A stretch of 64,000 nucleotides of DNA from Acidimicrobiia bacterium (GCA_046484325.1 JAWOJB010000054.1:2287-66286); one strand, 5' to 3'. Counted from the stretch's first letter, positions 3,919 to 55,868 are shown. Numbers and translations are program-made. The notes: generated from the letters alone by a model not told the origin.

Positions 3919-4346
3919 GGAAGCCGACACTGCTGGTCGCGATCGCGCTGGCCACTTCCGCCTGCGGCGGGGGTTCGGATGGCGTCACCGTCGACGATCC
4001 GTGGGGCCGGACCTCGCCGATGAACGCCGAGCTGGGGGCGTTCTACATGACCATCGAGAACGGTGCCAACACCGCTGACCGGATCGTGGCGGGGAGCTCC
4101 GACCGGTGCTCGGCGATCGAGTTCCACAACTCGTCGATGGACGCCGACGGGGTCATGAGCATGGCACCAGCTCCTGAGCTGTTCGTCGTCCCGGCCGGCG
4201 GGAGCCTCGAGCTGAGGCCGGCCGGGCTCCATGTGATGTGCGTGGGTCTCACCGCCCCTCTGGTCGATGGCGAGATGGTCGAACTGGACCTCGAGTTCGA
4301 GCAGGCCGGGACGGTACCGGTCGAGGTGAGCGTGGAGGATCGGTAG
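3915..4346 (+). CDS. Periplasmic copper chaperone PCu(A)C (DUF461) lipoprotein
   Basis: ATG 3915 overlaps the Sco stop (ATGA). MRKPTLLVAIALATSAC lipobox. His/Met copper motif FHNSSMDADGVMSM...LHVMCVG. Confidence 0.85.
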   Translation: MRKPTLLVAIALATSACGGGSDGVTVDDPWGRTSPMNAELGAFYMTIENGANTADRIVAGSSDRCSAIEFHNSSMDADGVMSMAPAPELFVVPAGGSLELRPAGLHVMCVGLTAPLVDGEMVELDLEFEQAGTVPVEVSVEDR

Positions 4347-4347
4347 C

Positions 4348-4424
4348 AATGCGCGGTGTGCGGTGCGCCATGCGCCATGCGCCTTGCGCCGTGCGCTCGA
4401 CGCCGTGCCCTTCATGCCGTGCAC
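4348..4424. repeat. Tandem heptamer array, 11 units of NNTGCGC
   Basis: aatgcgc ggtgtgc ggtgcgc catgcgc catgcgc cttgcgc cgtgcgc tcgacgc cgtgccc ttcatgc cgtgcac. Begins 2 nt after the TAG stop at 4344-4346. Lies between convergent genes. Confidence 0.9.
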
Positions 4425-4447
4425 CCAGGCGATCGGCCGACCGCTGA

Positions 4448-5209
4448 CTACCGACCGCTGAGCGCCTTTCGCATCCCCGCCAGCCAGCGATCCCGGTCCC
4501 CTGCCCGGCGCCGCTCGTACTCGGCCACCTCGGGGTGGGGGAGGATGAGGAAGCGCTCGTCGCTCAGCCCCTCCACCACGAGGTCGGCCACCTCTTCCGG
4601 TTCGATCGCCCCCGGCCGGAGCATGTCCCCCAGGCGACCGGTCGCGTCGAGCATGTCGGTCCGTACGCCCTGCGGGCAGAGGCACGACACCCGCACCCCG
4701 GCATCTCCGTGGGTGATGGCGATCCACTCGGCGAGGGCGACCACCGCGTGCTTGGTGACTGCGTAGACGGCCGAACCCGGGCTGGTGAGCAGACCGGCCG
4801 CCGACGCCGTGACGAGCAGGTATCCGCCGCCCCGGACCCGCCACTCGGGCACGAGGTGGCGGGCGGCGTGGAGGTGGGCGAGTGTGTTGACCTCCCAGCT
4901 GCGCTGCCAAGACCCGTCGTCGAGGTCGAGGCCGCCCTCCATCGCGATCCCGGCGTTGGCACAGAACAGGTCAACCGGTCCGAACGCCTCCCGCGCTGCC
5001 TCGATGAGGCGGATCGTGTCCTCCTCCCGGCGTACGTCGACGGCCAGGCCCACACCGCCCACCTCGCCGGCGACCCGGCCGGCCGCCTCCCCGTCGAGGT
5101 CTCCGACCACGATGCCCGCCGGCTGTTCCCGGGCGAATCGCCTGGCCAACGCAGCGCCGATCCCTCGGCCGCCGCCGGTGATCACGATCACGGCTCCACG
5201 AAGCTCCAT
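4448..5209 (-). CDS. Short-chain dehydrogenase/reductase (SDR)
   Basis: Part of ORF 4448..5431 starting at MELRGAVIVITGGGRGIG (ATG 5209). YAVTKHAV catalytic YxxxK. Confidence 0.85.
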   Translation of the reverse strand: MELRGAVIVITGGGRGIGAALARRFAREQPAGIVVGDLDGEAAGRVAGEVGGVGLAVDVRREEDTIRLIEAAREAFGPVDLFCANAGIAMEGGLDLDDGSWQRSWEVNTLAHLHAARHLVPEWRVRGGGYLLVTASAAGLLTSPGSAVYAVTKHAVVALAEWIAITHGDAGVRVSCLCPQGVRTDMLDATGRLGDMLRPGAIEPEEVADLVVEGLSDERFLILPHPEVAEYERRRAGDRDRWLAGMRKALSGR

Positions 5210-5294
5210 GGTCGGACGGTACCGGGGGGAGCAGGCTCCCGGGCGCGGGGACGGGCGATTGCGCACAGGCGGGGGGATCCGCCACCATCGCCGG

Positions 5295-6791
5295 ATGGGT
5301 GGCACCAGCCTCTGGATCCTCGGCGACCAGTTGAGCCGCGGCCACCCCGGACTCGAACAGGCCGACCGGGTGGTGATGGTGGAGTCGGCGGAGCGCGCAC
5401 GGCGTCGCCCCGTCCACCGCCGCAAGCTCACGCTGCTCCTCTCGGCGATGCGCCACCGGGCCGTCGAGATCGAGGCGTCGGGCCTCGAGGTCGACTATCG
5501 GATCGTCGAGGCAACACTCGCCGGGCTCGAGGCCCACGTCGCCGCCCACCGGCCGGAGCGCATCCTCACGATGGACGCATCGGAGTGGGCCGGATCCCGG
5601 TTCCAGGCATCGCTCGGCGAGCGGTTGGGGGTGCCGGTGGAGGTACTGCCGAACACCCAGATGCTGGCGGGGCGTTTCGACCCCTTCCCCGACATGGAGC
5701 CGTTGAAGCCCTTGGTGATGGAGCGCTTCTACCGGAAGATGCGGGTCCACTTCGGCCTCCTCCTCGATCCGGCGGGCGAGCCGGAGGGAGGAGCCTGGAA
5801 CTTCGACGCCGACAACCGTCGAGCCTATCCGAGGACGGGCCTCCGGCCGCCACCGGTCCCCTCGCACCCACCCGATGCGACGACCCGCGAGGTCATGACC
5901 GAGGTTGCGTCGATGCCCGGCATCGGCTCGGTCGATGGTTTCGACCTGGCCGTCACCAGGGAGCAGGCGTTGGAAGCCCTCGATGACTTCCTCACCCACC
6001 GACTGGAGTGGTTCGGGCCCTACGAGGACGCCATGAGCGCCCAGCACGACGTGCTGTACCACTCTGTGCTGTCCCCCTATCTCAACGTCGGCCTGCTCGA
6101 CCCGCTCGAGGCCTGCCAGGCTGCCGAGGCCGCCTACACGGAGGGCCGGGCGCCGATCAACAGTGTCGAGGGCTTCGTGCGCCAGATCGCCGGGTGGCGC
6201 GAGTTCGTGTACTGGAACTACCGGCGGCTCATGCCGGACCTCGCGAGGATGAACGACTGGGGCCACCACCTCCCGCTTCCGGCGTTCTTCTGGACCGGCG
6301 ACACCGACCTGCGCTGTCTGTCGACGGTGATCCGGCGGGTCCTCGACACCGGCTACTCGCATCACATCGAGCGGCTCATGGTGCTCTGCAACTTCGCCAT
6401 GCTCGCCGGCATCGACCCCCGGGAGGTGAACGAGTGGTTCCTCTCCTGCTACGTCGATGCCTACGAGTGGGTCGTGACCCCCAACGTGGTGGGCATGGGC
6501 CTCAACGCCGACGGGGGGATCGTCGCCACCAAGCCCTACGTGGCGTCGGCCCGCTACATCGACCGGATGTCCGACTTCTGCTCCGAATGCCGCTACGACC
6601 CGGCGAGGCGGACCGGCGACGACGCATGCCCGTTCAATGCCCTGTACTGGGACTTCCTCATTCGGAACGAGGAGCGGCTACGTGCCAACCCCCGGCTCGG
6701 TCCGGCCGTGCTCGGGCTGCGCCACCTCGACGAGGACGAGCGGATGCGGGTGGCCGAGGTGGCATCCGAGTTCCGGGTGTCGTTGGGATGA
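5295..6791 (+). CDS. Cryptochrome/photolyase family protein of the Fe-S bacterial type (FeS-BCP / (6-4) photolyase-like, COG3046-like)
   Basis: 3' part of ORF 4785..6791 from MGGTSLWILGDQL (ATG 5295). C-terminal cysteines VLCNF ... DFCSECRYDPARRTGDDACPFN match the four-Cys [4Fe-4S] pattern of PhrB/CryB-type enzymes. Confidence 0.8.
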   Translation: MGGTSLWILGDQLSRGHPGLEQADRVVMVESAERARRRPVHRRKLTLLLSAMRHRAVEIEASGLEVDYRIVEATLAGLEAHVAAHRPERILTMDASEWAGSRFQASLGERLGVPVEVLPNTQMLAGRFDPFPDMEPLKPLVMERFYRKMRVHFGLLLDPAGEPEGGAWNFDADNRRAYPRTGLRPPPVPSHPPDATTREVMTEVASMPGIGSVDGFDLAVTREQALEALDDFLTHRLEWFGPYEDAMSAQHDVLYHSVLSPYLNVGLLDPLEACQAAEAAYTEGRAPINSVEGFVRQIAGWREFVYWNYRRLMPDLARMNDWGHHLPLPAFFWTGDTDLRCLSTVIRRVLDTGYSHHIERLMVLCNFAMLAGIDPREVNEWFLSCYVDAYEWVVTPNVVGMGLNADGGIVATKPYVASARYIDRMSDFCSECRYDPARRTGDDACPFNALYWDFLIRNEERLRANPRLGPAVLGLRHLDEDERMRVAEVASEFRVSLG

Positions 6792-6800
6792 GCAGCCGGA

Positions 6801-8606
6801 TCAGGCTTCGAGCAACGCAGGTTCGATCTCGAACAGGGGAGCCGCCCCGGCCGTGATCGACGGGACCAGTCCGAAGGCCGACGGTAGGAGTTGCTCGCCG
6901 TAGAACCGGCAGGTCGCCACCTTGGCCTGCAGCCAGGCGGCGTCGCCGGATCCCGACTCGAGCAACCGGAGTGCGGCCAGCGCGGACCTCGCCATCAGCC
7001 AGCCACCGGTGACGTTGCCGAAGAGCCTCAGGTAGGGGGTCGCCCCGGCCAGGGCGTCGTCGTACTCACCCGCGGCGATCCTGGCCCCGAGCCAGGCGGA
7101 GGCATCCGACAGGGCCGACACCCCCTCGCGCAGGTGGGTGCGGAAGGTGTCGAGCTCATCGATGCCCTCCATGGCGGCCGCGGTCCCCCCGATCTCGGAC
7201 AGGAACTCGGCCAGGACCGCCCCGTCCCGCAGCGGCAGCTTGCGGAGCACCAGATCGATCGCCTGGATCCCGTTGGTCCCCTCGTAGATCGGAGCGATCC
7301 GAGCGTCCCGGTAGTGCTGGGCGACACCCGTCTCCTCCACGTACCCCATGCCCCCGTGCACCTGGATCCCCAGCGAGGTGAGCTCGACGCCCAGGTCGGT
7401 GCACCAGGCCTTGGTGATCGGGGTGAGCAGGGCCACCCTCTCGCCGGCCCGCCGCCGCAGATCCTCGTCGTCGGCGTGATGCTCGTGATCGACCCCGGCT
7501 GCGGCGGTGTAGAGCAGGCAGCGCATCGCCTCGTTGTAGGCCCGCATCGTCATCAGCATGCGGCGTACGTCGGGGTGGTCGATGATCGGTGAGCTCTCGG
7601 TCGGGTCGGCTCCGATCGCCCGGCCCTGCCTCCGCTCGACGGCGTAGGCGAGGGACGCCTGGTAGGCCCGTTCTCCCATGGCCAGGCCCTCGATCCCCAC
7701 CCCGATCCGGGCGCTGTTCATCATCGTGAACATGTACCGCATACCCTGCTGCTCGTCCCCGAGCAGGTACCCGATCGCGCCCTTTCCCTCGTCGCCGAAG
7801 GCGACGACGCAGGTGGGGGAGGCGTGGATGCCGAGCTTGTGCTCGAGCGACACCACCTTCACATCGTTGCGCTCGTCGGGGTTCCCGTCGGCGTCGAGCA
7901 GGTACTTGGGGACGATGAACATCGAGATCCCCTTCGTACCCGGGGCGGCATCGGGGGTCTTGGCCAGCACGAGGTGGAGCACGTTGTCGGTGAGGTCGTG
8001 GTCGCCCCAGGTGATGAAGATCTTCTGCCCGGTGATCCGGTAGCTGCCGTCGGCCTGGCGCACGGCCCGGGAGGACAGGGCGCCGACGTCGGAGCCGGCG
8101 TGTGGCTCGGTGAGGCACATCGTGCCGCTCCACTCGCCCGACACGAGCTTCTCGAGGTAGGTGGCCCGCTGCTCCTCGGAGCCATGCTGGAGCAGGGCTT
8201 CGATCGCCGCCTGGGTGAGCATCGGGGCGAGAGCGAAGGCCATGTTGGCCGACTTGAACATCTCCTGGAGCACGATGCCCACGGTGTAGGGGAGGCCGCC
8301 GCCGCCCCACGCCTCGGGCAGGTGGCCACCGCCCCATCCGGCGTCGACATACTTCCGGTAGGCGGCCGGGAACCCGTCAGGGGTCTTGACCGACCCGTCG
8401 GGCTGGAGTCGGGAACCGACGACGTCCCCTGCCCGGTTGAGGGGCGACATCACCTCCGAGAAGAACCGCGCCGCCTCGGCGAGCAGCCCGGAGACGGTGT
8501 CGGGATCGGCGTGCTGGAAGCCGTCGAGCTTGGCGACCTCGGCGAGGCCGGCCACCTGGTTGAGGGCGAAGTCGATGTCCTTGAGGGGGGCGACGTACTC
8601 CGGCAT
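6801..8606 (-). CDS. Large acyl-CoA dehydrogenase (about 600 aa, FadE-like with extended C-terminal domain)
   Basis: ORF 6801..8717, likely start MPEYVAPLKDIDF at 8606. Acyl-CoA dehydrogenase-like segments TEPHAGSDV, ITGQKIFITWGDHD, GGMGYVEETG. Confidence 0.85.
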   Translation of the reverse strand: MPEYVAPLKDIDFALNQVAGLAEVAKLDGFQHADPDTVSGLLAEAARFFSEVMSPLNRAGDVVGSRLQPDGSVKTPDGFPAAYRKYVDAGWGGGHLPEAWGGGGLPYTVGIVLQEMFKSANMAFALAPMLTQAAIEALLQHGSEEQRATYLEKLVSGEWSGTMCLTEPHAGSDVGALSSRAVRQADGSYRITGQKIFITWGDHDLTDNVLHLVLAKTPDAAPGTKGISMFIVPKYLLDADGNPDERNDVKVVSLEHKLGIHASPTCVVAFGDEGKGAIGYLLGDEQQGMRYMFTMMNSARIGVGIEGLAMGERAYQASLAYAVERRQGRAIGADPTESSPIIDHPDVRRMLMTMRAYNEAMRCLLYTAAAGVDHEHHADDEDLRRRAGERVALLTPITKAWCTDLGVELTSLGIQVHGGMGYVEETGVAQHYRDARIAPIYEGTNGIQAIDLVLRKLPLRDGAVLAEFLSEIGGTAAAMEGIDELDTFRTHLREGVSALSDASAWLGARIAAGEYDDALAGATPYLRLFGNVTGGWLMARSALAALRLLESGSGDAAWLQAKVATCRFYGEQLLPSAFGLVPSITAGAAPLFEIEPALLEA

Positions 8607-8746
8607 GGCACTCCTCGCGGCGGATCGGCGTTGACGGAACGATACCGACCGGGAGCGATCACCGGACAGTGGTCGGACGTCACTTCCATCCGCCGAAGTG
8701 GGCTCGGGACATGGCATGCGGAGAGATGAGGCGGTACCCTTCTCCC

Positions 8747-9358
8747 ATGCCCCGCATCAAGGCCGAGAGCATCGAGGCCCATAAGGACCTGGTGCGCCGC
8801 GAGCTGCTGGATGCGGCCCACGCCTTCCTCTGTGAGACCCGATCCGCCGACGTGAACCTGGCAGAGGTGGCGGCTCGGGCCGGGATCGGCCGTACGACCT
8901 TCTACGAGTATTTCCGGGACCGTGACGATCTGGTGGCGTCGCTGGTCGAGGAGATCCTGCCGGGGGTGGTCGATCGCCTGATCGCCTCGGTCCCCCCCGA
9001 GGGACGGTACGCCGAGAGGCTGCGGGCCATGGCCGTCGCCACCGTCGAATACCTCGCCGCCGACGAGGTGCTGGGGCTCATCCTCCACAGGGAGCTCCCC
9101 CGGCTGGGCCAGTCGGCCCAGGATCGGATCGCCCTCGCCCACGCCGATCTCACCCAGGAGATGGCAGCTCTCTACCGGAAGGGCGTCGAGGCGGGCGAGT
9201 TCGTGTCGCTCCCGCCCGCCCTGGCCGGTCGCTTCATCCACGAGGTCACCATGGCCGGCGGCAAGGCCGTGATCGCCTCGGCCGGGTCGCACGAGGCCGT
9301 GCGCGACGTCGCCGGCGTCACCGCCGACTTCCTGGTCCGCGGGCTCCGGTCCGCCTAG
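8747..9358 (+). CDS. TetR family transcriptional regulator
   Basis: ORF 8669..9358, start MPRIKAES (ATG 8747). HTH region NLAEVAARAGIGRTTFYEYFRDRDDL. Divergent from the acyl-CoA dehydrogenase gene. Confidence 0.85.
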   Translation: MPRIKAESIEAHKDLVRRELLDAAHAFLCETRSADVNLAEVAARAGIGRTTFYEYFRDRDDLVASLVEEILPGVVDRLIASVPPEGRYAERLRAMAVATVEYLAADEVLGLILHRELPRLGQSAQDRIALAHADLTQEMAALYRKGVEAGEFVSLPPALAGRFIHEVTMAGGKAVIASAGSHEAVRDVAGVTADFLVRGLRSA

Positions 9359-9412
9359 CCCGAATCGGGCGTCTGTTATCCCCGTTCCCCCCCGGTAATC
9401 TGACGAGCCCAC

Positions 9413-11518
9413 ATGGAGCCGATGCAGGACACCGTCGAGTTCGATATCGGCGCGCCGCCGGATGGGGACCCCGTCCGCCCGCTGGTGCTCAACCGCGAGC
9501 TGTCCTGGCTCGACTTCAACAGCCGGGTGCTGGCCCTCGCCGAGGATCCCGATCTGCCGATGCTCGAGCGGGCCCGGTTCCTGGCGATCTGGGGGTCGAA
9601 CCTCGACGAGTTCTTCATGGTGAGGGTGGCCGGGCTCAAGGAGCAGGTGGCCCACGGGGTTCGCGGCATGACCCCCGACGGGCGCACCGCGGTCGAGACG
9701 CTCGAGGGCATCCGCGACGAGGTGAGGTCGCAGGCAGATCGAGCCACCCGGGTGTTCCTCGACGATCTCGCCCCCGGCCTGGCCGCGGCGGGGGTGGCCT
9801 TCTCCGAGTACGCCAGCCTCGACGAGGGTGACCGGGCGTACATGGACCAGCAGTTCCGTGAGCTGGTCTTCCCGGTGCTCACCCCCCTCGCCGTCGACCC
9901 CGCCCACCCCTTCCCCTACATCTCCAACCTCTCCCTCAACCTGGCGGTCACCGTCCGCGACCCGGTGACCGAGGTCATCCGCTTCGCCCGGGTCAAGGTG
10001 CCGCCCAGCCTCCCCAGGTTCGTGGTGATGCCGGACGGTGAGCGGTTCGTGTCGGTCGAGCAGGTGATCGCCTTCCACATGGAGGAGCTCTTTCCCGGCA
10101 TGGAGATCCTCGGCCACGACGCCTTCCGGGTCACCCGCAACGCCGACCTCGAGATCGAGGAGGACCAGGCCGAGGATCTGCTCGCCGCCATCGAAACCGA
10201 GCTGTCACGGCGCAGATTCGGGCGGGCGGTGCGACTCGAGCTCTCCCCGGAGATGGCGCCGAGGGTCAGGGACCTGTTGGTGAGCGAGTTGGGCGTCACC
10301 GAGGACGACGTGTACGTGAACGAGGGGCCGCTCGGCATCGCCGGGCTCGCCGGATTGGCCGACCTCGACCGTTCCGACCTGCTGTGGGAGCCGTGGAGCT
10401 GGGTCACCCAGCCCCGGCTGGCACCGTCGATCGGCGAGCGGCCCGACATCTTCCGCGTGATCCGGGACGGCGACATCCTCGTCCACCACCCATACGACTC
10501 GTTCGCCACCTCGGTGGCCGAATTCATCGCCCAGGCGGCTCGCGATCCGCACGTGCTGGCGATCAAGCAGACGCTGTACCGCACGTCGAAGGACAGCGTG
10601 ATCATGTCGTCGCTGATGGAGGCGGCGAGCCTCGGCAAGCAGGTGGTGGCGCTGGTCGAGTTGAAGGCGCGGTTCGACGAGGAGCGCAACATCGAGTGGT
10701 CCCAGCGCCTGGAGGACGCCGGGGTGCACGTGGTGTACGGCGTGGTCGGGCTGAAGACCCACACGAAGATCGCCCTGGTCGTGCGACTCGAGGACGGCAT
10801 CATCGCGCGATACGCCCATGTGGGGACCGGCAACTACAACGACTCGACGGCCCGCATCTACGAGGACCTGGGCGTCTTCACGGCAGACCCGGACATCGGG
10901 GCCGATCTCAGCGATCTCTTCAACTACCTCACCGGGTACAGCCACCAGCGATCGTTCAGGAAGCTACTCGTGTCCCCGGCCGGAACCCGGCCTGCCCTCC
11001 TCCGGATGATCCGGGAGCAGGCGGCCCAATCCGGCGGCCGGATCTTCATGAAGATGAACTCGCTCGTCGACCGAGAGATGATCGAGACGCTGTACGAGGC
11101 GTCACAGGCGGGCGCCCAGGTCGACCTCTTCGTCCGCGGCATCTGCTGCCTGGTCCCGGGTGTCCCCGGGATGTCCGAGAACATCCGGGTCCGCTCAATC
11201 GTAGGCCGCTATCTCGAGCACTCCCGGGTCTACCGCTTCGGACCGCGCGGCGGCGAGCGGAGCTACTTCATCGGCTCGGCCGACCTCATGCCCCGCAACC
11301 TCGACCGTCGGGTCGAGGCGCTCGCCCCGGTGGAGGACCCGGCGCTCCAGTTCCGCATCGACGAGATCGCCGACGTGGTGCTCGCCGACGACGTGCGCAG
11401 CTGGGAGCTGGGGCCCGACGGCGAGTGGCGCAGGATCCCGACCGAGCGGGGGATCGAGGCCCACCTCACCCTGCGCGGTTTGGCCGAGGCCAGGGCTCAG
11501 GCCCGCACCGAGGCCTGA
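9413..11518 (+). CDS. ppk: Polyphosphate kinase 1
   Basis: 701-aa ORF. NRELSWLDFNSRVL N-terminus, KTHTKIALV phosphohistidine region, two PLD-like C-terminal domains. Confidence 0.95.
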   Translation: MEPMQDTVEFDIGAPPDGDPVRPLVLNRELSWLDFNSRVLALAEDPDLPMLERARFLAIWGSNLDEFFMVRVAGLKEQVAHGVRGMTPDGRTAVETLEGIRDEVRSQADRATRVFLDDLAPGLAAAGVAFSEYASLDEGDRAYMDQQFRELVFPVLTPLAVDPAHPFPYISNLSLNLAVTVRDPVTEVIRFARVKVPPSLPRFVVMPDGERFVSVEQVIAFHMEELFPGMEILGHDAFRVTRNADLEIEEDQAEDLLAAIETELSRRRFGRAVRLELSPEMAPRVRDLLVSELGVTEDDVYVNEGPLGIAGLAGLADLDRSDLLWEPWSWVTQPRLAPSIGERPDIFRVIRDGDILVHHPYDSFATSVAEFIAQAARDPHVLAIKQTLYRTSKDSVIMSSLMEAASLGKQVVALVELKARFDEERNIEWSQRLEDAGVHVVYGVVGLKTHTKIALVVRLEDGIIARYAHVGTGNYNDSTARIYEDLGVFTADPDIGADLSDLFNYLTGYSHQRSFRKLLVSPAGTRPALLRMIREQAAQSGGRIFMKMNSLVDREMIETLYEASQAGAQVDLFVRGICCLVPGVPGMSENIRVRSIVGRYLEHSRVYRFGPRGGERSYFIGSADLMPRNLDRRVEALAPVEDPALQFRIDEIADVVLADDVRSWELGPDGEWRRIPTERGIEAHLTLRGLAEARAQARTEA

Positions 11519-11532
11519 GGGCCTTCGGGCGC

Positions 11533-11616
11533 TTTGCGCATTGCGAGGTGCGCGATGCGCCGGCAATCAACGATCATCCGCCAGCGCACAGCGCACAGCG
11601 CACAGCGCACAGCGGG
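11533..11616. repeat. Two opposed heptamer arrays: (NNTGCGC)x4, a 21-nt spacer, then (CAGCGCA)x4-5
   Basis: tttgcgc attgcga ggtgcgc gatgcgc, then cggcaatcaacgatcatccgc, then cagcgca x4 and cagcggg. The arms are imperfectly complementary, about 21 of 28 positions. Starts 15 nt after the ppk stop. Confidence 0.85.
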
Positions 11617-11636
11617 CCATCAGGCTCCCTCTCAAC

Positions 11637-11720
11637 GTTCACCCTCCGTTCACTCGTCGAGGCCGAGCGAGTTCACCTTGCGGCCGTAGCTTCCTCATCG
11701 CGGGTAGGGATTCACCCTGC
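11637..11720 (+). promoter_or_regulatory. PHO box region: 11-nt direct repeat units GTTCACC upstream of pstS
   Basis: GTTCACCCTCC (11637) and GTTCACTCGTC (11648) are exactly 11 nt apart. Further units are GTTCACCTTGC (11671) and ATTCACCCTGC (11710). pstS ATG is at 11771. Confidence 0.75.
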
Positions 11721-11770
11721 CGCCGCGCCGCACCAGAAGGGGCGCGTCCCTCGAGTCGAGGAGAAATCAC

Positions 11771-12790
11771 ATGACACTCAGGAGCAGATGGGCGGCGCTC
11801 GCGGCCGTCTTCGCTCTCGTCCTCGCCGCCTGTGGCGGTGGTGACGCCGCCGACGACGGAGGCGACACCACGACGACTACGGCAAGCGGAGGCGGTGAGC
11901 AGACCACGACGACCGCGGCCAGCGCGGGCCTGAGCGGTGACGTCCGGATGGACGGCTCGAGCACGGTTGGCCCGCTGTCCGAGGTGGCAGCCGAGCTGTA
12001 CATGCAGAAGGAGCCCGACGTCCGGGTGACGGTCGCCATCTCCGGCACCGGGGGCGGCTTCCAGAAGTTCTGCATCGGCGAGACCGACGCCAACAACTCG
12101 TCGCGGCCGATCAAGGACTCCGAGATCGAGCAGTGCGCCGAGAGCGACATCCAGTACGACTTCATCCAGGTCGCCAACGACGCCCTCTCGGTCGTGATCA
12201 ACCTCGACAACCCCGTTGCATGTCTGACGGTGGAGCAGGTGAGCCAGATCTGGGACGACGGCTCGACGGTCAAGACGTGGGGTGACATCGACGGGTTGGA
12301 CATCCCGGCCGATTTCGCCTCCACCCCCCTGACACCCTACGGCCCGGGATCGGACTCCGGCACCTTTGACTTCTTCACCGAGGAGATCAACGGCGAGACC
12401 GGCCGAATCCGCATCGACTACATCGACATCGGCGAGGACGACCTGGCGGCGGTCAACGCCGTGCAGGGAGATGTCGGAGCGATGGGGTACATCCCGTTCT
12501 CCTACTTCCAGGAGTCGCTCGACAAGGTCAAGGCCGTGGCAATCGACGACGGCAATGGCTGCGTGGAGTCGACCCCCGAGAACGTGCTGAACGGGACCTA
12601 CACCCCGCTGGGCCGGGGCCTGTTCGTGTACTTCAGCGACCTGGCCCTGAGTCGGTTCGAGGTGCTCGACTTCGCCGATTTCTACCTCGACAACGCCCAG
12701 GAGATCGCGGAGCTGGCAGAATTCGTCCCGATGACGGACGAGCAGTTGACCGAGCAGCGCGTGAAGCTCGACGCCCTGGCCGGACGGTGA
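11771..12790 (+). CDS. pstS: Phosphate ABC transporter substrate-binding lipoprotein PstS
   Basis: Lipobox LVLAAC, Thr-rich linker, PstS-like GSSTVGP and TGGGF segments. First gene of the pstSCAB order. Confidence 0.9.
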   Translation: MTLRSRWAALAAVFALVLAACGGGDAADDGGDTTTTTASGGGEQTTTTAASAGLSGDVRMDGSSTVGPLSEVAAELYMQKEPDVRVTVAISGTGGGFQKFCIGETDANNSSRPIKDSEIEQCAESDIQYDFIQVANDALSVVINLDNPVACLTVEQVSQIWDDGSTVKTWGDIDGLDIPADFASTPLTPYGPGSDSGTFDFFTEEINGETGRIRIDYIDIGEDDLAAVNAVQGDVGAMGYIPFSYFQESLDKVKAVAIDDGNGCVESTPENVLNGTYTPLGRGLFVYFSDLALSRFEVLDFADFYLDNAQEIAELAEFVPMTDEQLTEQRVKLDALAGR

Positions 12791-13757: not shown

Positions 13758-14695
13758 TGGCCGTCCGGGAACCGCGCACCGCCAGGGTCCGGATCGCCAC
13801 GTCGGGAGCCAGGGCGGCAACCGAGGCCGCCCTCACGCGGGCATCCCATGGGGATCGTCTCATGGGACGTGTGTTCCTCGTCCTGATGCTCGCCGGCCTC
13901 GGGTTTGCGCTGCTCGGACTCGGGTCGCTCATTGTCTTCATGTTCTCCGAGGGAGGTGGGCGTCTGTCGTGGACCCTGTTGACGGCCGGCCCGTCGACGA
14001 TCAGCCCGGAGACGGCCGGGTACCGCACGGCGATCCTCGGCACCCTCTACGTGATCACCGGGGTCATCCTGCTCATCGTCCCGCTGGGGGTGGGTGCCGC
14101 CGTCTACCTCGAGGAGTTCGCCGACAGGGAGCGGTGGTGGAACCGCCTCATCGAGCTCAACATCCAGAACCTCGCCGGGGTCCCGTCGATCGTCTTCGGC
14201 ATCCTCGGGCTGGCCTTCTTCGTCCGGGGTACCTTGAGCCTCGGATTCGTGGCGGCGGCCGGCTCGCTGACCGTGGCGCTGCTGGTGCTCCCCACGGTGA
14301 TCCTGGCCGCTCGTGAAGCCATCCGGGCGGTACCGTCGTCGATCTCCGACGGAGCAATGGCGCTGGGAGCGACGAGGTGGCAGACCGTGAGGCGGCAGGT
14401 CCTGCCGGCAGCCCTGCCGGGCATCCTCACCGGGGTGATCCTCGCCGTGGCCCGAGCGATCGGAGAGGCCGCCCCGCTGCTGCTCGTCGGAGCCGTCACC
14501 TTCGTCACCTTCAACCCAAGGCTCTTCGAAGGGGGGTACTCGACGCTCCCAGTCATGATCTACCAGTACGCCAACCGGCCTCAGGCCGCCTTCCGCGAGT
14601 TGGCTGCGGCAGGCGTGATCGTCATGCTGGTGCTCGTGCTGGCGATGAACGCCTTCGCGGTGTGGCTGCGAGATCACTTCGAGCGTCGCTGGTGA
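13757..14695 (+). CDS. pstA: Phosphate ABC transporter permease PstA
   Basis: ATGA overlap with pstC. Polytopic. [13 protein letters not shown] permease signature. Confidence 0.9.
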
Positions 14696-20415: not shown

Positions 20416-21552
20416 ATGAGCGTTCGCTCCGTTCGATTCGCCTTCATCCTCGTGCTCGGAACCCTTTTCGGGGCCGGGGCGTATGCCGGTGTGCGCGACG
20501 GTGGCCAGGCCGTGGCGGCGGAGCCGGCCGTTTCCGCCCCTCCGACCCCGATCGTGCCACCGCCGCCGACGACTACTACCACCTCGACGACCACGACCAC
20601 CCTCCCTCCGACCACCACGACGACCACGATTCCCCCAGATCCCGATCGTGGCTGGCTGGTGATCCACGGCACGGGTGATGTCACCCTCGACCCCGACTAC
20701 ATCCCCAACCTCCGCCGGTACGGGTACGGGTTCGCCTGGGAGGGGCTGGGAGCGCTGTTCCTGCGAGATCACCTGACGGTCGTCAACCTCGAGTGCTCGC
20801 CCTCCCGCCTGGGGACCCCGTTCGACAAGGCGTTCACCTTCCGGTGCGACCCCGATGCCCTCCCGTACGCGGTCGAGGCAGGCATCGAGGTCATGAACCT
20901 CGCCAACAACCACGGTCAGGACTTCGGTAAGGAGGCGATGCTGGACGGGCGGGCCAACGTGATCGCCGCAGGCGCCGCTCCCGTGGGGGTCGGCAAGGAC
21001 CTCGCGGAGGCCACCAAGCCCGCCATCTTCGAGCTCGAAGGATGGACGGTCGCGGTGCTCGGGTTCGGCGGGGTGGTGCCGTGGGAGGCGTGGCTCGCCA
21101 CCGAGGACCGGGCGGGCATGGCCAGTGGTGACGACATCCCCACGATGGTCGGAGCCGTCCGCAGGGCGAAGACGCAGGCCGATCTGGTGGTGGTCACGAT
21201 CCACTGGGGTCGAGAGCTGGACACCCAGCCGCTCGCCGAGGACGTCGAGCGGGCCGAGGCCATGATCGAGGCCGGGGCGGACATCATCATCGGCCACCAC
21301 CAGCACCGGCTCAACCCCCTCACGTTCATCGACGGCAAGCCGGTGGCGTGGGGGATGGGAAACTTCGTGTGGCCGCGGCTCTCCGAGGCGAGCGCCACCA
21401 CGGCCGTGGCCAGGTTCGTCGTCTCACCGGAGGGCGACATCGACGCCTGCCTCATCCCGGCGTTCATCGGGGTGTCCGGCCGGCCCGAGCTCCGGGGCGA
21501 GCCGACATGCGCACCCCCGGTCGAGCCCCGCGAGGTCCCCGATGCCGGCTGA
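20416..21552 (+). CDS. CapA family (PGA_cap metallophosphatase-like) membrane-anchored protein with Pro/Thr linker
   Basis: N-terminal TM, PPPPTTTTTSTTTTTLPPTTTTTTIPP linker, then GTGDVTLDPDY...VVNLECS...NLANNHGQDFG, typical of CapA. Confidence 0.8.
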   Translation: MSVRSVRFAFILVLGTLFGAGAYAGVRDGGQAVAAEPAVSAPPTPIVPPPPTTTTTSTTTTTLPPTTTTTTIPPDPDRGWLVIHGTGDVTLDPDYIPNLRRYGYGFAWEGLGALFLRDHLTVVNLECSPSRLGTPFDKAFTFRCDPDALPYAVEAGIEVMNLANNHGQDFGKEAMLDGRANVIAAGAAPVGVGKDLAEATKPAIFELEGWTVAVLGFGGVVPWEAWLATEDRAGMASGDDIPTMVGAVRRAKTQADLVVVTIHWGRELDTQPLAEDVERAEAMIEAGADIIIGHHQHRLNPLTFIDGKPVAWGMGNFVWPRLSEASATTAVARFVVSPEGDIDACLIPAFIGVSGRPELRGEPTCAPPVEPREVPDAG

Positions 21553-23112: not shown

Positions 23113-23140
23113 AGTGCGCCGTGCGCTATGCGCCAGACAC
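23113..23140. repeat. Short heptamer array (3-4 units NNTGCGC)
   Basis: agtgcgc cgtgcgc tatgcgc cagacac. Begins 9 nt after the TAG stop at 23102-23104 and overlaps the last codons of the convergent thioesterase gene. Confidence 0.6.
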
Positions 23141-23917
23141 GGGGCTAAGCAACAGGTTCTGGACCGCCGTGCCGACCGGCCCGTCGACGTCGAAGAGGGT
23201 TGCCTCGGCACTGCCGACTCCGCTCGGATGCCAGTGGGAGAGGACCCGGGAGGCGTGCCACTCCCCCCGGGGAGGCCGGTGGATCGAGATCGTGAGGTCG
23301 GGGTTGACGAAGAAGATCTCGTCGAGGTAGGCGTTGTAGCTGATCCCGTTCCCGCAGTCGGCCAGCGGGCAGATCCGCTGAAACGGGCTCGGTTCCTCGT
23401 CGGCCAGGATCGGCACCTTGAGTCGCATCCATACGGTCGTGGGCCCGCCGCTGCCCTGGGACTGCGCCGGGTCGTACCGGACGTTCACCGAGTCGTTGAA
23501 GCCAGTCAGCCCGTGCGCGGTGGTGTGGATCGGGAAGGGGCCCGGCACGGCCACGGTGAAGTCGGGGACATCGACCTCGGGAGTCGAGACATCGATCCCG
23601 TCGGCGATCCTCAGGTGCATCCCGTACGCCCGGGCGAAGATGGTGTCGTCGTCGAAGATCTCCGCCTCCGTGAGCGTGACCTGCCTCCCCGGGCGGCGGA
23701 TCTCGCCCTGGGCCCGGAACCCGGTCATCGGGACGGGCCTCATCAGCTCCACGGTCATCCGTGCGAGGTGCATGTCGGGCACGAGGCGCTCGACGGCCCG
23801 AGCCATGAGGGCGGTCGGCGGCCCGGCGTGGCAGGCCCCGGGGTCCCACGGGCCGCGAGTGTGCTCGGTGGGAAGGAAGCGGAGACCGTCGGGGGTCGTG
23901 AAGTAGGCGGCGGCCAC
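23126..23917 (-). CDS. Thioesterase-like superfamily protein (acyl-CoA thioesterase/TesB-like double hotdog)
   Basis: 263-aa ORF. N-terminus FLPTEHTRGPWDPGACHAGPPTALMARA is typical of this family. Abuts the upstream M20 gene. Confidence 0.7.
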   Translation of the reverse strand: MAAAYFTTPDGLRFLPTEHTRGPWDPGACHAGPPTALMARAVERLVPDMHLARMTVELMRPVPMTGFRAQGEIRRPGRQVTLTEAEIFDDDTIFARAYGMHLRIADGIDVSTPEVDVPDFTVAVPGPFPIHTTAHGLTGFNDSVNVRYDPAQSQGSGGPTTVWMRLKVPILADEEPSPFQRICPLADCGNGISYNAYLDEIFFVNPDLTISIHRPPRGEWHASRVLSHWHPSGVGSAEATLFDVDGPVGTAVQNLLLSPVSGA

Positions 23918-25647: not shown

Positions 25648-25694
25648 CTGTGGGCCGGGGAACACGATTTCCGTGTTCCCCAGCCCTGGGTTGG
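25648..25694. repeat. Dispersed ~47-bp double-palindrome element, copy 1
   Basis: ctGTGGGCCGGGGAACACGatttcCGTGTTCCCCAGCCCTGGGTTGG. 10-bp stem GGGGAACACG/CGTGTTCCCC with a 5-nt loop, followed by the palindrome-like CCAGCCCTGGGTTGG. Lies between convergent 3' ends. Confidence 0.9.
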
Positions 25695-25699
25695 TCGGT

Positions 25700-29451: not shown

Positions 29452-29514
29452 CGTGGACGCGAGACGTGCGTCATGAGACGTGAGTGGGATGTGAGGCGGG
29501 GAGCGTGAGACTCG
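29452..29514. repeat. Degenerate 7-nt periodic tract (GTGNGAC-like units)
   Basis: cgtggac gcgagac gtgcgtc atgagac gtgagtg ggatgtg aggcggg gagcgtg agactcg. Begins immediately after the TAG stop at 29449-29451 and overlaps the start region of the next gene. Confidence 0.45.
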
Positions 29515-32856: not shown

Positions 32857-32904
32857 ACCGTGGGCCGGGGAACACGATTTCCGTGTTCCCCAACCCTGGG
32901 TTGG
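32857..32904. repeat. Dispersed ~47-bp double-palindrome element, copy 2
   Basis: acCGTGGGCCGGGGAACACGatttcCGTGTTCCCCAACCCTGGGTTGG. 44 of 45 core positions identical to copy 1. Contains the perfect palindrome CCAACCCTGGGTTGG. Lies between convergent 3' ends. Confidence 0.9.
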
Positions 32905-32906
32905 CT

Positions 32907-36401: not shown

Positions 36402-36404
36402 GAG

Positions 36405-36450
36405 CAACCCAGGGTTGGGGAACACGAGAATGGTGTTCCCGGGCCCACGG
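36405..36450. repeat. Dispersed double-palindrome element, copy 3 (opposite orientation, diverged loop)
   Basis: CAACCCAGGGTTGGGGAACACGagaatGGTGTTCCCGGGCCCACGG is the reverse complement of the copy 1/2 consensus with a few substitutions. Starts 4 nt after the clpB stop. Confidence 0.85.
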
Positions 36451-36481
36451 TTCGGCCGGGGACCCGACGTAACCTGTCGGC

Positions 36482-37705
36482 ATGCGACCCCGGATGGCCT
36501 GGTTGGCGTTCGCCCTGCTGGCGACCGGTTGTGGTTCGTCGGGGGCGGTCGAGGCGGTCGTGACGACCACGACGAGCGCCACGACGACCATCCCCACCAC
36601 GACGAGCACCACGACCTCCACCACGATCACCCTCCCGGCGACGACCACCTCTACATCGACCACGACGACCACGACCCTCGTCCCCGAGGACGGTCGCACC
36701 GCAGCCGAGCGGACACTGACCGAGGTCGCCGTGATCACCGGTGACATCGCTCCGAAGTCGATCGTCGCCTCAGGGGACGGGCTGTACGTCGCCCAGAACA
36801 TGATGTACCGGCACACCGTGACGGTGTACGACCGCAACTTCGAGCTCGTGGGGACGATCTCGGACACCGTCGTTCTGTCCGACTTCGGCCATGAGGGGTT
36901 CGAGGGCGAGTACCGGGGGGCGCCGGTCGAGGCGGCCTTCACCTCCGGTGGTGAGCACGTGTACGTGTCGAACTACGAGATGTACGGACCCGGCCTCCGG
37001 GGTGGGGCGGGGGACCGCTGCTCCCCCGGTCAGTGGCCGGACTCGTTCGTCTACCGGATCGACACCGGGAGGCTGGCGATCGACCAGGTGATCGCGGTCG
37101 GCTCGGTCCCCAAGTTCCTGGCAGTGACTCCCGACGACCGTCTCATCCTCGTGAGCAACTGGTGCTCGTACGACCTGTCGGTGATCGACGTGGAGACGGC
37201 AACCGAGACCGCCCGGGTCGAGATCGGTCGCTACCCGCGCGGGATCGCCGTCGCCCCCGACTCGTCGACCGCCTACATCGCCGTGATGGGCTCGAACCGG
37301 GTGAAGGTGCTCGATCTCGACAGCCTGGAGATCGTGGGCGAGGTCGTGGTCGGTACCTCCCCCCGTCACCTCGTGCTCTCACCCGATGGCGCCTTGCTGT
37401 ACGCGAGTCTCAACGGCGAGGGGCGCCTCGCCAAGGTCGACCTCTCCACCGGCGACGTGATCGGAAGGGTGGCGACCGGCGACGCCCCTCGCAGCATGGC
37501 GATCTCCGACGACGGCACCGCGCTCTACGTCGTCAACTACCGCTCAGGGACGGTCAGCAAGGTCCGAACCGGCGACATGACCGAGATCCAGGAGGTCCGG
37601 GCCGGGTACCACCCGATCGGCATCACCTACGACCCGGCCAACCGCCAGGTGTGGGTGTCCAACTACGGCGGCACGATCCAGGTGTTTGACGACCGATCGG
37701 ACTGA
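36482..37705 (+). CDS. YVTN-family beta-propeller lipoprotein with a long poly-Thr linker
   Basis: Lipobox LLATGC. About 45-aa Thr/Ser linker. Repeated blades PRGIAVAPDSSTAYIA, PRHLVLSPDGALLYAS, PRSMAISDDGTALYVV, HPIGITYDPANRQVWV. Confidence 0.85.
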   Translation: MRPRMAWLAFALLATGCGSSGAVEAVVTTTTSATTTIPTTTSTTTSTTITLPATTTSTSTTTTTTLVPEDGRTAAERTLTEVAVITGDIAPKSIVASGDGLYVAQNMMYRHTVTVYDRNFELVGTISDTVVLSDFGHEGFEGEYRGAPVEAAFTSGGEHVYVSNYEMYGPGLRGGAGDRCSPGQWPDSFVYRIDTGRLAIDQVIAVGSVPKFLAVTPDDRLILVSNWCSYDLSVIDVETATETARVEIGRYPRGIAVAPDSSTAYIAVMGSNRVKVLDLDSLEIVGEVVVGTSPRHLVLSPDGALLYASLNGEGRLAKVDLSTGDVIGRVATGDAPRSMAISDDGTALYVVNYRSGTVSKVRTGDMTEIQEVRAGYHPIGITYDPANRQVWVSNYGGTIQVFDDRSD

Positions 37706-52495: not shown

Positions 52496-52599
52496 TGCCT
52501 CCCTCCTGGAGCCTGCATGATGGTCGGAACGAATCGCGAATGGCGCCCAGAGCGGCCATGTGATGCGGACTAACGTCGGTGGCCGACACGGGAGGTGTG

Positions 52600-53025
52600 A
52601 TGGATCCGATCGAGGCCTTGCTCCAGTCGAGTCTCATGCGGGCACTCGACGACCGTCAGCTGAACTCGCTCGCCAGCGTGGCCCGGCGGCGTCGGTTCGA
52701 CCCGGGCGAGCATCTCATCCGGGAAGGGACTGCCGGAGCGCTGGCGATGTTCGTCGTGCTCGAGGGGAAGGTCGGGGTGAAGAAGGGGGAGCAGCTCATC
52801 GCCGAGTTCGGACCAGGCGCCCATGTGGGCGAGGTGGCGGTGCTCGGACCCGAGGATCAGCGACGGACCGCCGACGTGGTGGCGATCGAACCGACGACGG
52901 TGCTCCAGTTGACGAAGTGGGACATCTTCCCCGTGCTCAAGACGAATCCCGACGCCGCCCTCGCGGTGATCTCGGACCTGGCGAAGCGGCTCTCGGACGC
53001 CACCGGGCGCATGGCGGCCGACTGA
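52600..53025 (+). CDS. Single-domain cyclic nucleotide-binding protein
   Basis: ORF 52579..53025. GGGAGG precedes ATG 52600. FGPGAHVGEVAVL...RTADVVA matches the cNMP-binding phosphate-binding cassette. Confidence 0.85.
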   Translation: MDPIEALLQSSLMRALDDRQLNSLASVARRRRFDPGEHLIREGTAGALAMFVVLEGKVGVKKGEQLIAEFGPGAHVGEVAVLGPEDQRRTADVVAIEPTTVLQLTKWDIFPVLKTNPDAALAVISDLAKRLSDATGRMAAD

Positions 53026-53067
53026 GGTGCGCGATGCGCGGTGAGCCATGCGCATTGCGCTGTGCGC
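53026..53067. repeat. Tandem heptamer array, 6 units of NNTGCGC
   Basis: ggtgcgc gatgcgc ggtgagc catgcgc attgcgc tgtgcgc. First base directly follows the TGA stop at 53023-53025. Confidence 0.9.
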
Positions 53068-53078
53068 AGTCAGGTGTG

Positions 53079-53097
53079 TCCCCCACGAAGTGGGGGA
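53079..53097 (+). terminator. GC-rich stem-loop, candidate intrinsic terminator lacking a U-tract
   Basis: TCCCCCAC gaa GTGGGGGA (8-bp stem, 3-nt loop) downstream of the first cNMP gene and the heptamer array. Confidence 0.4.
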
Positions 53098-53224: not shown

Positions 53225-53647
53225 ATGAGTCTGTTACGGAAGCGGGATCAGAAGGTCGAGGTCCTGCAACGTGTCCCCCTGTTCGCCGGTCTCAGCAAGA
53301 AGGATCTGGGCCAGTTGGCCCGCCATCTGGACGAGGTGGATCTCAAGGAGGGGACCGTACTCACCCGCGAGGGTGAACTCGGCCGGGAGGCGATGATCCT
53401 CCTGAGCGGGACTGCCGTGGTCCGCCGCAAAGGGCGCAAACTGGCCGAGCTCGGCCCTGGCGACGTGATCGGAGAGCTGAGCCTGCTCGCCGAGATCCCC
53501 CGCACCGCATCCGTGGTGGCGACGAGCGAACTTACCGTGGCGCTCATGACGGCGTCGGACTTTGGCGCGGTCGTCGACGAGAACCCACAGGTCGCCGTCC
53601 GGATGCTGCGGACCGTCGCCCACCGGTTCGCCGAGTTGAGCGGGTAG
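53225..53647 (+). CDS. Single-domain cyclic nucleotide-binding protein (second copy)
   Basis: VPLFAGLSKKDLGQLARHL...LGPGDVIGELSLL...PRTASVVA. Confidence 0.88.
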   Translation: MSLLRKRDQKVEVLQRVPLFAGLSKKDLGQLARHLDEVDLKEGTVLTREGELGREAMILLSGTAVVRRKGRKLAELGPGDVIGELSLLAEIPRTASVVATSELTVALMTASDFGAVVDENPQVAVRMLRTVAHRFAELSG

Positions 53648-55812: not shown

Positions 55813-55868
55813 GGTGCGACGTGCGACGTGGGATGTGGGACGTGGGACGTTGGACGTTGGACGTGAGA
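55813..55868. repeat. Tandem heptamer array, 8 units, with stepwise unit drift
   Basis: ggtgcga cgtgcga cgtggga tgtggga cgtggga cgttgga cgttgga cgtgaga. Lies between the dnaK stop (55878-55880) and the grpE start. Confidence 0.9.

Follow-up and report, generated by a model that had tools for sequence, protein, structure and literature searches.

We analyzed a 64,000-nucleotide stretch of DNA from an Acidimicrobiia metagenome-assembled genome (MAG; GCA_046484325.1 JAWOJB010000054.1:2287-66286, hereafter the window) that contains, at positions 4348-4424, a tandem array of seven-nucleotide units next to a gene encoding a PCuAC copper chaperone. The window has a G+C content of ~70%, its cumulative GC skew climbs over its entire length, and a gene map based on G+C at third codon positions (GC3) indicates that 92% of it is coding and 8% is intergenic. 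Housekeeping genes within it include SCO1, PCuAC, ppk, pstS, glnA, clpB, and dnaK-grpE-dnaJ. The PCuAC gene (3921-4346, plus strand; Pfam PF04314, E = 3.8e-31) ends with a TAG codon at 4344-4346, and a single base (c, 4347) separates this codon from the first unit of the array, aatgcgc at 4348. A convergent short-chain dehydrogenase (SDR) gene lies on the minus strand at 4448-5191, such that the array sits in a 101-nt tail-to-tail gap in which no promoter is required.

The array was first described in a prediction made from the DNA sequence alone, and the sequence quoted there for 4348-4424 matches the window exactly. The original prediction called eleven strict heptamers. Seven units are clear (4348-4396, plus strand: aatgcgc ggtgtgc ggtgcgc catgcgc catgcgc cttgcgc cgtgcgc), with units 1 and 3-7 matching NNTGCGC exactly and unit 2 having one mismatch. 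The remainder (4397-4424, plus strand) consists of approximately four increasingly decayed relics, units 8-11, that are not strict copies and carry one to three mismatches to TGCGC, in agreement with the predicted decay of the core toward the 3' end. Tandem Repeats Finder (TRF) assigned period 7 to 4364-4396 (4.7 copies, 92% matches) and period 21 to 4349-4396.

Five further arrays had been placed elsewhere in the window, and all of them are present. The one described downstream of ppk at 11533-11616 is really two arrays in opposite orientation: four TGCGC units (one of them TGCGA) on the plus strand at 11533-11560, which begin 14 nt past the ppk stop codon and form the proximal arm of an inverted pair, and 4.7 copies of TGCGCTG on the minus strand (CAGCGCA on the plus strand) at 11582-11616, detected by TRF, which form the distal arm. 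Three TGCGC units at 23113-23140 (plus strand) begin 8 nt past the stop codon of a PQQ-propeller gene and overlap the final codons of a convergent thioesterase gene (23126-23917, minus strand). A degenerate CGTGRGA array of ~6 units (29452-29504, plus strand) spans the glnA-SDR spacer completely, reaching from the TAG stop codon to the GTG start codon, and six TGCGC units (one of them TGAGC) at 53026-53067 (plus strand) directly abut the TGA of a gene encoding a cNMP-binding domain. The array in the dnaK-grpE spacer (55813-55868, minus strand) was reported by TRF as 7.4 copies of GTGGGAC on the plus strand, and its transcript, from the minus strand, contains CACGUCC-type units. Stop-codon proximity, which had been claimed for five of the arrays, holds for all six: each lies no more than 15 nt from a stop codon, at distances of 1, 14, 8, 0, and 0 nt, and 9 nt for the dnaK stop codon on the minus strand. 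The arrays had also been called intergenic without exception, and they do all map to the 8% of intergenic DNA, although the one at 23113-23140 enters the thioesterase gene. None occurs in the nine divergent (promoter-only) gaps of the window. These data support the existence of a dispersed family of arrays.

Seven-nucleotide periodicity and exclusion from coding DNA

Pairs of TGCGC motifs in the window are separated by 7, 14, and 21 nt in 10, 8, and 7 cases, respectively, almost all other distances from 3 to 30 nt have none, and the only peaks are at 7, 14, 21, and 28 nt. The pattern (TGCGCNN)2TGCGC with at most one mismatch was observed 15 times, compared with 0.06 times expected from dinucleotide shuffles, and an autocorrelation scan of periods 4-12 detected strong arrays at period 7 only. 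The density of TGCGC is 4.3-fold higher between genes than within them. The same was true on a larger scale. In 189 kb of Acidimicrobiia DNA, all 25 period-7 arrays were intergenic, consistent with the exclusion from coding DNA that the original prediction implied, whereas periods 4, 5, 8, 10, and 11 yielded zero to one array and arrays of periods 6, 9, and 12 were nearly all coding.

Repeats of the latter kind are present in the window as well. At 20567-20629 and 36562-36675, where the gene map has gaps of 279 and 329 nt, TRF detected tandem repeats that are rich in ACC/ACG and have periods of 9, 12, 15, 18, and 21. These repeats probably encode Thr/Pro-rich linkers (N-termini of secreted proteins or lipoproteins), and the actual gene starts therefore likely lie farther upstream than mapped.

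The arrays are restricted to certain lineages. They are abundant in the clade formed by the window strain and its relatives A and B (see below) and in some other Acidimicrobiia (L030, L035, and L060), and 81.5 kb of DNA from five further class members contain none. A search of one genome per species with the pattern (TGCGCNN)3TGCGC recovered at least 120 loci, from Streptomyces, Glycomyces, Kineococcus, Gemmatimonadota, Chloroflexota, Planctomycetota, Acidobacteriota, Proteobacteria, and others. Cultivable hosts among them include Streptomyces humicola, S. pacificus, Glycomyces algeriensis DSM 44727, and a Kineococcus sp. Among the matches listed, to which all of the following counts apply, the longest TGCGC arrays have 15 units, and many arrays have different heptamers, such as GGGAATC, on their flanks. 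The 642 kb of DNA sampled from other phyla contained 68 additional intergenic heptamer arrays with non-TGCGC units, compared with 5-16 arrays for each of the other non-triplet periods. In the high-GC subset, from which arrays at locus edges were excluded, 8 of 79 arrays were in coding DNA. Of 47 arrays in co-directional gaps, 33 were nearer to the stop codon than to the following start codon (p = 0.004), and divergent gaps held 15 of 71 arrays. Relative to the upstream gene, 37 TGCGC arrays were sense and 34 antisense, indicating no orientation bias across phyla, and uniform sense orientation was seen only in a small Acidimicrobiia subset. Other heptamer arrays also lie near TGCGC arrays in the Gemmatimonadales MAG L072 (3090-3133 and 3737-3783) and in L056 (948-988); their units include the telomere-like GGGGTTA/CCCTAAT and GGGAATC, the latter identical to a unit found in Xanthomonas.

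Turnover of arrays at orthologous sites

The polyphosphate kinase encoded in the window shares 100% identity with a protein of an Acidimicrobiia MAG. The window strain is also represented in Joint Genome Institute (JGI) assemblies L206, L207, L208, L213, and L214, which are 99.6-99.98% identical to the window at the nucleotide level. Syntenic relatives at ~82-90% nucleotide identity comprise relative A (L121, L122, and L210), relative B (L211), and a third group (L209 and L125). Relative A is represented by Ga0645780_00273 and relative B by Ga0645781_03402. The comparison also drew on more distant Acidimicrobiia (L212, L215, L216, and L126-L130), and L212 served as the outgroup for the glnA-SDR spacer.

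Comparison of orthologous gaps, which had been proposed as a way to detect copy-number variation, revealed variation at three sites, with unit counts of 0, 6, 13, and 24, of 0, 4, and 7, and of 3 and 4. The first series comes from the glnA-SDR spacer, which in the outgroup is 8 nt long and consists of a plain ribosome-binding site without any unit, and which in the window has ~6 degenerate units, compared with 13 units in relative A and 24 (174 nt) in relative B, with the array running from the TAG right up to the start codon. The unit GTGAGAC is identical to the downstream SDR gene's start codon plus the following four nucleotides, which suggests that the array was seeded locally; the array-free outgroup reads ATGAGAC. 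The dnaK-grpE spacer contains four CACGTCG units in L209 (90% GrpE identity) compared with 7.4 units in the window, and five relatives with 56-70% GrpE identity, among the matches listed, have no array there. In array-free relatives, spacers of 0-40 nt suffice, and the same genes and operons are kept. The gap between the PQQ-propeller and thioesterase genes contains three TGCGC units in the window, four in relative B, and 16 units of a different heptamer (GGTCAGC/TCTCAGC) in relative A.

Replacement of one heptamer by another also occurred at the PCuAC/SDR gap, which is 101 nt in the window and 55-58 nt in relative A. In relative A, the gap contains a TGCGC relic, ggcgccgtgtgccgcacgccc, that is similar to the decayed tail of the window array (4397-4424) and is followed by seven units of an unrelated heptamer, ACTACYC, the order of which is not the same in L121 and L122. 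At 4467-4516 of L121, and likewise in L122, the ACTACYC array, by way of one unit, provides the TAG stop codon and the last four to five codons of the convergent SDR gene, the end of which reads ...gtg agt agt gag TAG on the minus strand. Since the array supplies the stop codon and last codons, the C-terminus of the protein has been remodelled by a heptamer array.

At the ppk gap, the window and relative A both have a TGCGC arm and an inverted (GCGCACA)4 arm, and L125 has three GTCTCAC units beginning 3 nt past the stop codon. Direct repeats of a different kind, GTTCACC/GTTCACT with 11-nt spacing, are located upstream of pstS (11637-11677), with the heptamer arrays lying between the ppk stop codon and these repeats. 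They resemble actinobacterial PhoP "PHO boxes" and are conserved in L121, L125, L215, and L216 while the remainder of the gap diverges.

Variation was also apparent between strains. Within ~57 kb aligned to the assemblies that are 99.6-99.98% identical to the window, two of three indels are in or at the 35-nt GCGCACA array (11582-11616), where L214 has lost 9 nt and L213 has lost 2 nt. The third, 7 nt (CGATGGC) at 13803, distinguishes the window from L213 (99.75% identical); it sits between two pst permease genes (region 13758-13870) and is the only one outside heptamer arrays. The array at 4348-4424 is identical in L213, a JGI contig, and the dnaK-grpE array is identical in L206, L207, and L208, assemblies from three samples.

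Units also drift within single arrays: TGCGCGA changes to GACGCCG and then to GTCCCCA in L030, GTGCGAC to GTGGGAC and then to GTTGGAC in the dnaK array of the window, and GGTGCCT to AATGCCT and then to AGCGCCT in L035. This drift links the TGCGC and GTGNGAC units, which the original prediction had listed as two families. The L030 array (JAOUGY010000166.1, 529-623) starts 4 nt past a stop codon and is a composite of three TGCGCGA, two GACGCCG, and four GTCCCCA units; 280 nt beyond it is a perfect array of 16 GCTTGTT units (900-1017). Together, the two arrays illustrate both motif drift and the presence of several arrays in one gap.

Origin of the arrays and alternative explanations

We consider it probable that the arrays are heptanucleotide microsatellites that are generated by slippage and are tolerated nowhere but in the dispensable DNA right after stop codons. 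A short local sequence would be duplicated in tandem, and the copies would then expand, contract, and drift via slipped-strand mispairing during DNA synthesis. Arrays would be purged from promoters, ribosome-binding sites, and coding sequence, the last because seven is not a multiple of three. As the genome is 92% coding, the only DNA in which arrays would be tolerated extends from a stop codon to the next element, which would cause them to abut stop codons and fill operon spacers. The motif itself (TGCGC, GTGRGAC, or others) would be incidental and replaceable rather than a recognition site, and we infer that the arrays have no sequence-specific function. Some arrays may nevertheless have gained secondary properties; the inverted-pair hairpins, for example, could serve as terminators lacking a U-tract or as 3'-end protectors. 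Tolerated slippage would explain stop-codon adjacency, the filling of operon spacers, encroachment on gene ends, lack of motif conservation at orthologous sites, and mixed folding behavior. "Slippage-prone spacers" was one of several roles put forward in the original prediction, and it is the one we favor, given that copy number differs between relatives and that two of the three strain indels fall in one array.

Several observations weigh against this reading. Slippage alone leaves the exclusive proliferation of 7-nt units unexplained. The stop-adjacent TGCGC arrays of Acidimicrobiia are all sense relative to the upstream gene, at six of six independent sites (4348, 11533, 23113, and 53026 in the window, one in L030, and one in L060; p of ~0.03, two-sided), an orientation that a purely neutral process would not impose, though a replication-strand bias could and may be the cause, given the climb of the cumulative GC skew across the window. 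Relative A has kept the inverted pair at ppk, down to the exact number of four GCGCACA units, despite divergence of the flanks, which, together with the recurrence of an inverted pair in L060, hints at selection on some arrays. The dnaK-grpE array is unchanged across three samples, indicating that not every array is hypervariable. Finally, the bias toward stop codons in co-directional gaps of other phyla suits a function at 3' ends and tolerated space equally well.

With respect to RNA structure, which had been suggested as a common 3'-end feature, the arrays have nothing in common, ranging from strongly structured to unusually unstructured. RNA from the gap containing the 4348-4424 array folds no better than shuffled sequences on either strand (z = +0.8 on both), and we dropped a hairpin or terminator reading of that array on this basis. 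For the dnaK-grpE array, the transcript strand has less structure than its shuffles do (z = +1.67), and folding of the ACTACYC and GGTCAGC arrays of relative A is unremarkable. The inverted pair in the ppk gap, by contrast, forms a long, segmented, GC-rich hairpin without a U-tract (z = -4.7), the same inverted-pair design in the unrelated Acidimicrobiia MAG L060 gives z = -4.55, and the 53026 array (z = -3.3) folds back on itself because several of its units are TGCGCA. The ppk gap of relative A has the same layout as that of the window and a z-score of 0.08, and we therefore claim no conserved structure for this site. An Rfam scan of the whole window at gathering thresholds returned no matches, a scan of 4000-12500 for consensus terminators and promoters found neither promoters nor terminator-like sites (hairpin followed by a U-tract) in the array gaps, and G-quadruplex-aware ViennaRNA folding of the GTGGGAC arrays, which is a prediction only, gave no quadruplex.

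Hairpins outside the heptamer arrays were also observed. Directly downstream of the 53026 array, a strong hairpin, UCCCCCAC-GAA-GUGGGGGA (53079-53097), precedes a G/C-rich run, not a U-tract, and is located between tandem cNMP-binding-domain genes (52597-53025 and 53225-53647). A separate dispersed element of ~45 nt, gtgggccGGGGAACACGatttcCGTGTTCCCCagccctgggttgg, occurs at 25648-25695, 32858-32905, and, in reverse orientation, 36402-36452, and contains a 10-bp GC-rich hairpin. Two copies are in convergent gaps and one is just past the clpB stop codon. This element may be of the repetitive extragenic palindromic (REP) type or a terminator without a U-tract, and possibly represents the actual 3'-end signal of the genome.

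If the arrays instead functioned at 3' ends, as I-shaped terminators without U-tracts, as blocks to 3' exonucleases, or by insulating convergent or adjacent genes from one another, they would matter in a high-GC lineage lacking canonical hairpin-plus-U terminators, and the scanned array gaps do indeed lack such terminators. This explanation accommodates the location of all six window arrays no more than 15 nt from a stop codon, the absence of arrays from the nine divergent gaps, the 33 of 47 arrays nearer to stop codons among the matches listed from other phyla, the uniformly sense orientation of the stop-adjacent TGCGC arrays in Acidimicrobiia, and the very strong folds at ppk, L060, and 53026. 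It is nonetheless fairly unlikely to be the general explanation: folding of the 4348-4424 array and several others is no stronger than that of shuffles, or is weaker (z = +0.8, +0.56, +1.67, and -0.35), the same architecture at ppk in relative A has no unusual stability, termination would be detrimental at two arrays that lie within operons (dnaK-grpE and glnA-SDR), array-free relatives get by with spacers of 0-40 nt, and, among the matches listed, 15 of 71 arrays in other phyla are in divergent gaps. Alternatively, the arrays could be platforms for a single-stranded nucleic-acid-binding protein that occupies ~7 nt per subunit with loose sequence specificity, such that selection acts on register; by analogy, candidate binders would include a cold-shock-domain or S1/KH-type protein or a ring-shaped HutP/TRAP-like regulator. 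HutP, which binds UAG triplets 4 nt apart, is a precedent for a period of seven. CspB binds direct heptamer repeats with one protein per heptamer (PMC4679880), the transcript strand of several arrays has unusually little structure (dnaK-grpE, z = +1.67, and ACTACYC), and seven is the sole non-triplet period to have proliferated, both here and in other phyla, a pattern suggestive of a molecular ruler. Motifs at orthologous sites, however, have only their length in common, array-free relatives retain the same genes and operons, the binder is putative, and a ruler within the DNA synthesis or repair machinery would account for the periodicity equally well, leaving the platform unlikely as an explanation. 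A ruler in the broader sense, i.e., dedicated machinery that adds 7 nt or a binder with a 7-nt register, would tie together the periodicity, the sense orientation of TGCGC arrays, and the bursts in particular lineages, and we likewise give it a slim chance. It could lie in the machinery of replication or repair, as a property by which additions of 7 nt are templated at the ends of genes, or it could be an RNA- or single-stranded DNA-binding protein with a 7-nt register that accepts any motif, in which case the arrays could be 3'-end, terminator, or insulator elements of high-GC bacteria that lack canonical terminators. Either form, if true, would convert the "heptamer excess" known since 2007 into a defined mechanism.

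The original prediction also raised the idea of phased GCGC clusters that act as a methylation-dependent or sequence-specific platform for a double-stranded DNA-binding protein. GCGC is present within every TGCGC unit, TGCGC is enriched in intergenic DNA as described above, and the window contains an N6/N4 DNA methyltransferase gene (61681-62592, identified via the corresponding L206 gene). Known GCGC methylases are of the C5 type, and the family of the window enzyme is N6A/N4C, not C5. In addition, a 7-bp spacing places consecutive sites on different faces of the helix, and GCGC is neither depleted nor enriched in the window overall (460 observed, 431 expected). Orthologous gaps of close relatives carry unrelated heptamers that are free of GCGC (ACTACYC and GGTCAGC, as well as GTGRGAC). 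A role specific to the motif is thus not supported, and we regard this idea as very unlikely. An even more unlikely explanation, and one we regard as hardly credible, is that the arrays are artefacts of metagenome assembly at low-complexity sequence. The source is indeed a MAG, and short contigs of relatives often end near arrays, as does the 1.7-kb L209 contig. Identical arrays were nevertheless assembled from three samples, the 4348-4424 array is the same in L213, the arrays are shorter than sequencing reads, orthologous arrays are present in several relatives, and arrays occur in genomes of cultured Streptomyces, Glycomyces, Kineococcus, and other organisms.

The life cycle of the arrays can be followed unusually clearly at these orthologous sites, through local seeding, expansion from 0 to 24 units within an operon spacer, drift, and replacement of the motif, with encroachment on gene ends that extends to supplying a stop codon. 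Even essential operons such as dnaK-grpE tolerate long periodic inserts. Annotation pipelines would do well to mask heptamer arrays rather than call them open reading frames (ORFs) or "regulatory elements", and in metagenomes contigs are likely to break at the arrays, which are also likely to serve as strain markers. Comparing array-bearing with array-free clades offers a handle on why the unit length is seven.

Comparison with known heptanucleotide repeats

Several classes of repeat were considered and set aside. CRISPR arrays require repeats of 23-50 nt with unique spacers of similar length, whereas the units here are contiguous and 7 nt long. REP elements and miniature inverted-repeat transposable elements require either a palindromic unit of at least 20 nt or terminal inverted repeats with a target-site duplication, and the arrays, which differ from one another in length and flanks, share only a 5-nt core. 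Phase-variable contingency repeats are located in ORFs or promoter spacers, and these arrays are 3' of genes or in operon spacers; nor do they have the hypervariability of contingency loci, as only the GCGCACA array varies between strains and the dnaK-grpE array is the same in three samples. The "heptameric repeats" bound by Streptomyces antibiotic regulatory proteins (SARPs) are 7-mers spaced 11 nt apart and are unrelated.

The arrays had been thought to represent an undescribed class of element. Intergenic tandem heptanucleotides are, however, already known and recurrent in bacteria, having been described as long simple sequence repeats (LSSRs) and in Calothrix and Nostoc, Xanthomonas, Beggiatoaceae, and Geobacter. 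As cited in later papers, the survey of Mrazek, Guo & Shah (2007) identified heptanucleotides as the commonest class of long simple sequence repeat in most genomes rich in repeats of 5-11 nt, placed three Actinobacteria within the top ten such genomes, and proposed polymerase contact length as the cause of the 7-nt preference (PMC4679880, PMC4692102). The arrays resemble LSSRs, as the survey is represented in those papers, in having 7-nt units arranged head to tail without spacers, a length beyond chance, a mostly intergenic location, a preference for seven among units of 5-11 nt, a lineage-specific and phylogenetically scattered abundance that includes Actinobacteria, and polymerase slippage as the proposed origin. 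TRF found uninterrupted period-7 repeats of 4.7-7.4 copies in the window, their number exceeds that expected from composition (15 compared with 0.06), non-triplet units are noncoding and period 7 dominates in both the 189-kb and 642-kb samples, and copy number is unstable between relatives (0, 6, 13, and 24 units; 0, 4, and 7; 3 and 4). Turnover at orthologous sites, documented here, is not among the subjects of the survey as those papers present it.

In anatomy, the closest likeness is to the GGGAATC arrays of Xanthomonas, of which ~90% are intergenic, with a mean distance of 28 nt to the upstream ORF and 160 nt to the downstream ORF (Rehm et al. 2015; PMC4692102). Those arrays vary in length and sequence between close species while keeping their position, occur on both strands, and include some inverted pairs (PMC4692102). 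Window arrays are likewise on the stop-codon side, 0-14 nt from stop codons, as are 33 of 47 arrays in other phyla among the matches listed; the G-tract is the exception to this shared anatomy. The GGGAATC and GGGGAYT units of Xanthomonas and Nostoc contain a tract of three to four G residues and form G-quadruplexes in vitro (PMC4692102), whereas the TGCGC units at 4348-4424 lack a G-run and GTGGGAC has a G3N4 layout without a predicted quadruplex. Effects on expression have been reported for tandem TTTTGAA heptamers in Nostoc.

The short tandemly repeated repetitive (STRR) sequences of heterocystous cyanobacteria have the consensus units CCCCAGT, TTGGTCA, and CAACAGT. Like the arrays described here, STRRs in Calothrix and Nostoc are, as represented in the source that cites them, dispersed, noncoding tandem heptanucleotides with several motif families per genome, and they differ in that their motifs are AT-richer and unrelated to the NNTGCGC and GTGRGAC units of an Acidimicrobiia host (ref. 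39 in PMC4692102). The TAACTGA repeats of Beggiatoaceae share the same general features but belong to another phylum, have an AT-richer motif that contains stops in all frames, and are found mostly on the 5' side, toward start codons (PMC4679880). In Geobacter metallireducens, GC-rich tandem heptamers (GGACCGG x4 and MTYCTGA x5) at dozens of dispersed sites were annotated as putative regulatory elements; GGACCGG has a fixed copy number of four and also occurs within genes, while the arrays here have 3-24 units and are excluded from genes (PMC2700814). REP elements, bacterial interspersed mosaic elements (BIMEs), and I-shaped actinobacterial terminators are also found in 3' gaps, and the inverted pair at 11533-11616 is similar to them in forming a long GC-rich hairpin without a U-tract; REPs, however, are single imperfect palindromes of 20-40 nt, and the arrays are tandem 7-mers, mostly non-palindromic. 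In the literature searched, there was no link between heptamers and Acidimicrobiia, and the NNTGCGC/GTGRGAC motif family was not found. The arrays therefore appear to belong to the described heptanucleotide LSSR class, within which the TGCGC family of this Acidimicrobiia clade appears to be new, and they extend the range of organisms rich in intergenic heptanucleotide repeats to an uncultured Acidimicrobiia clade and, more broadly, to many high-GC phyla.

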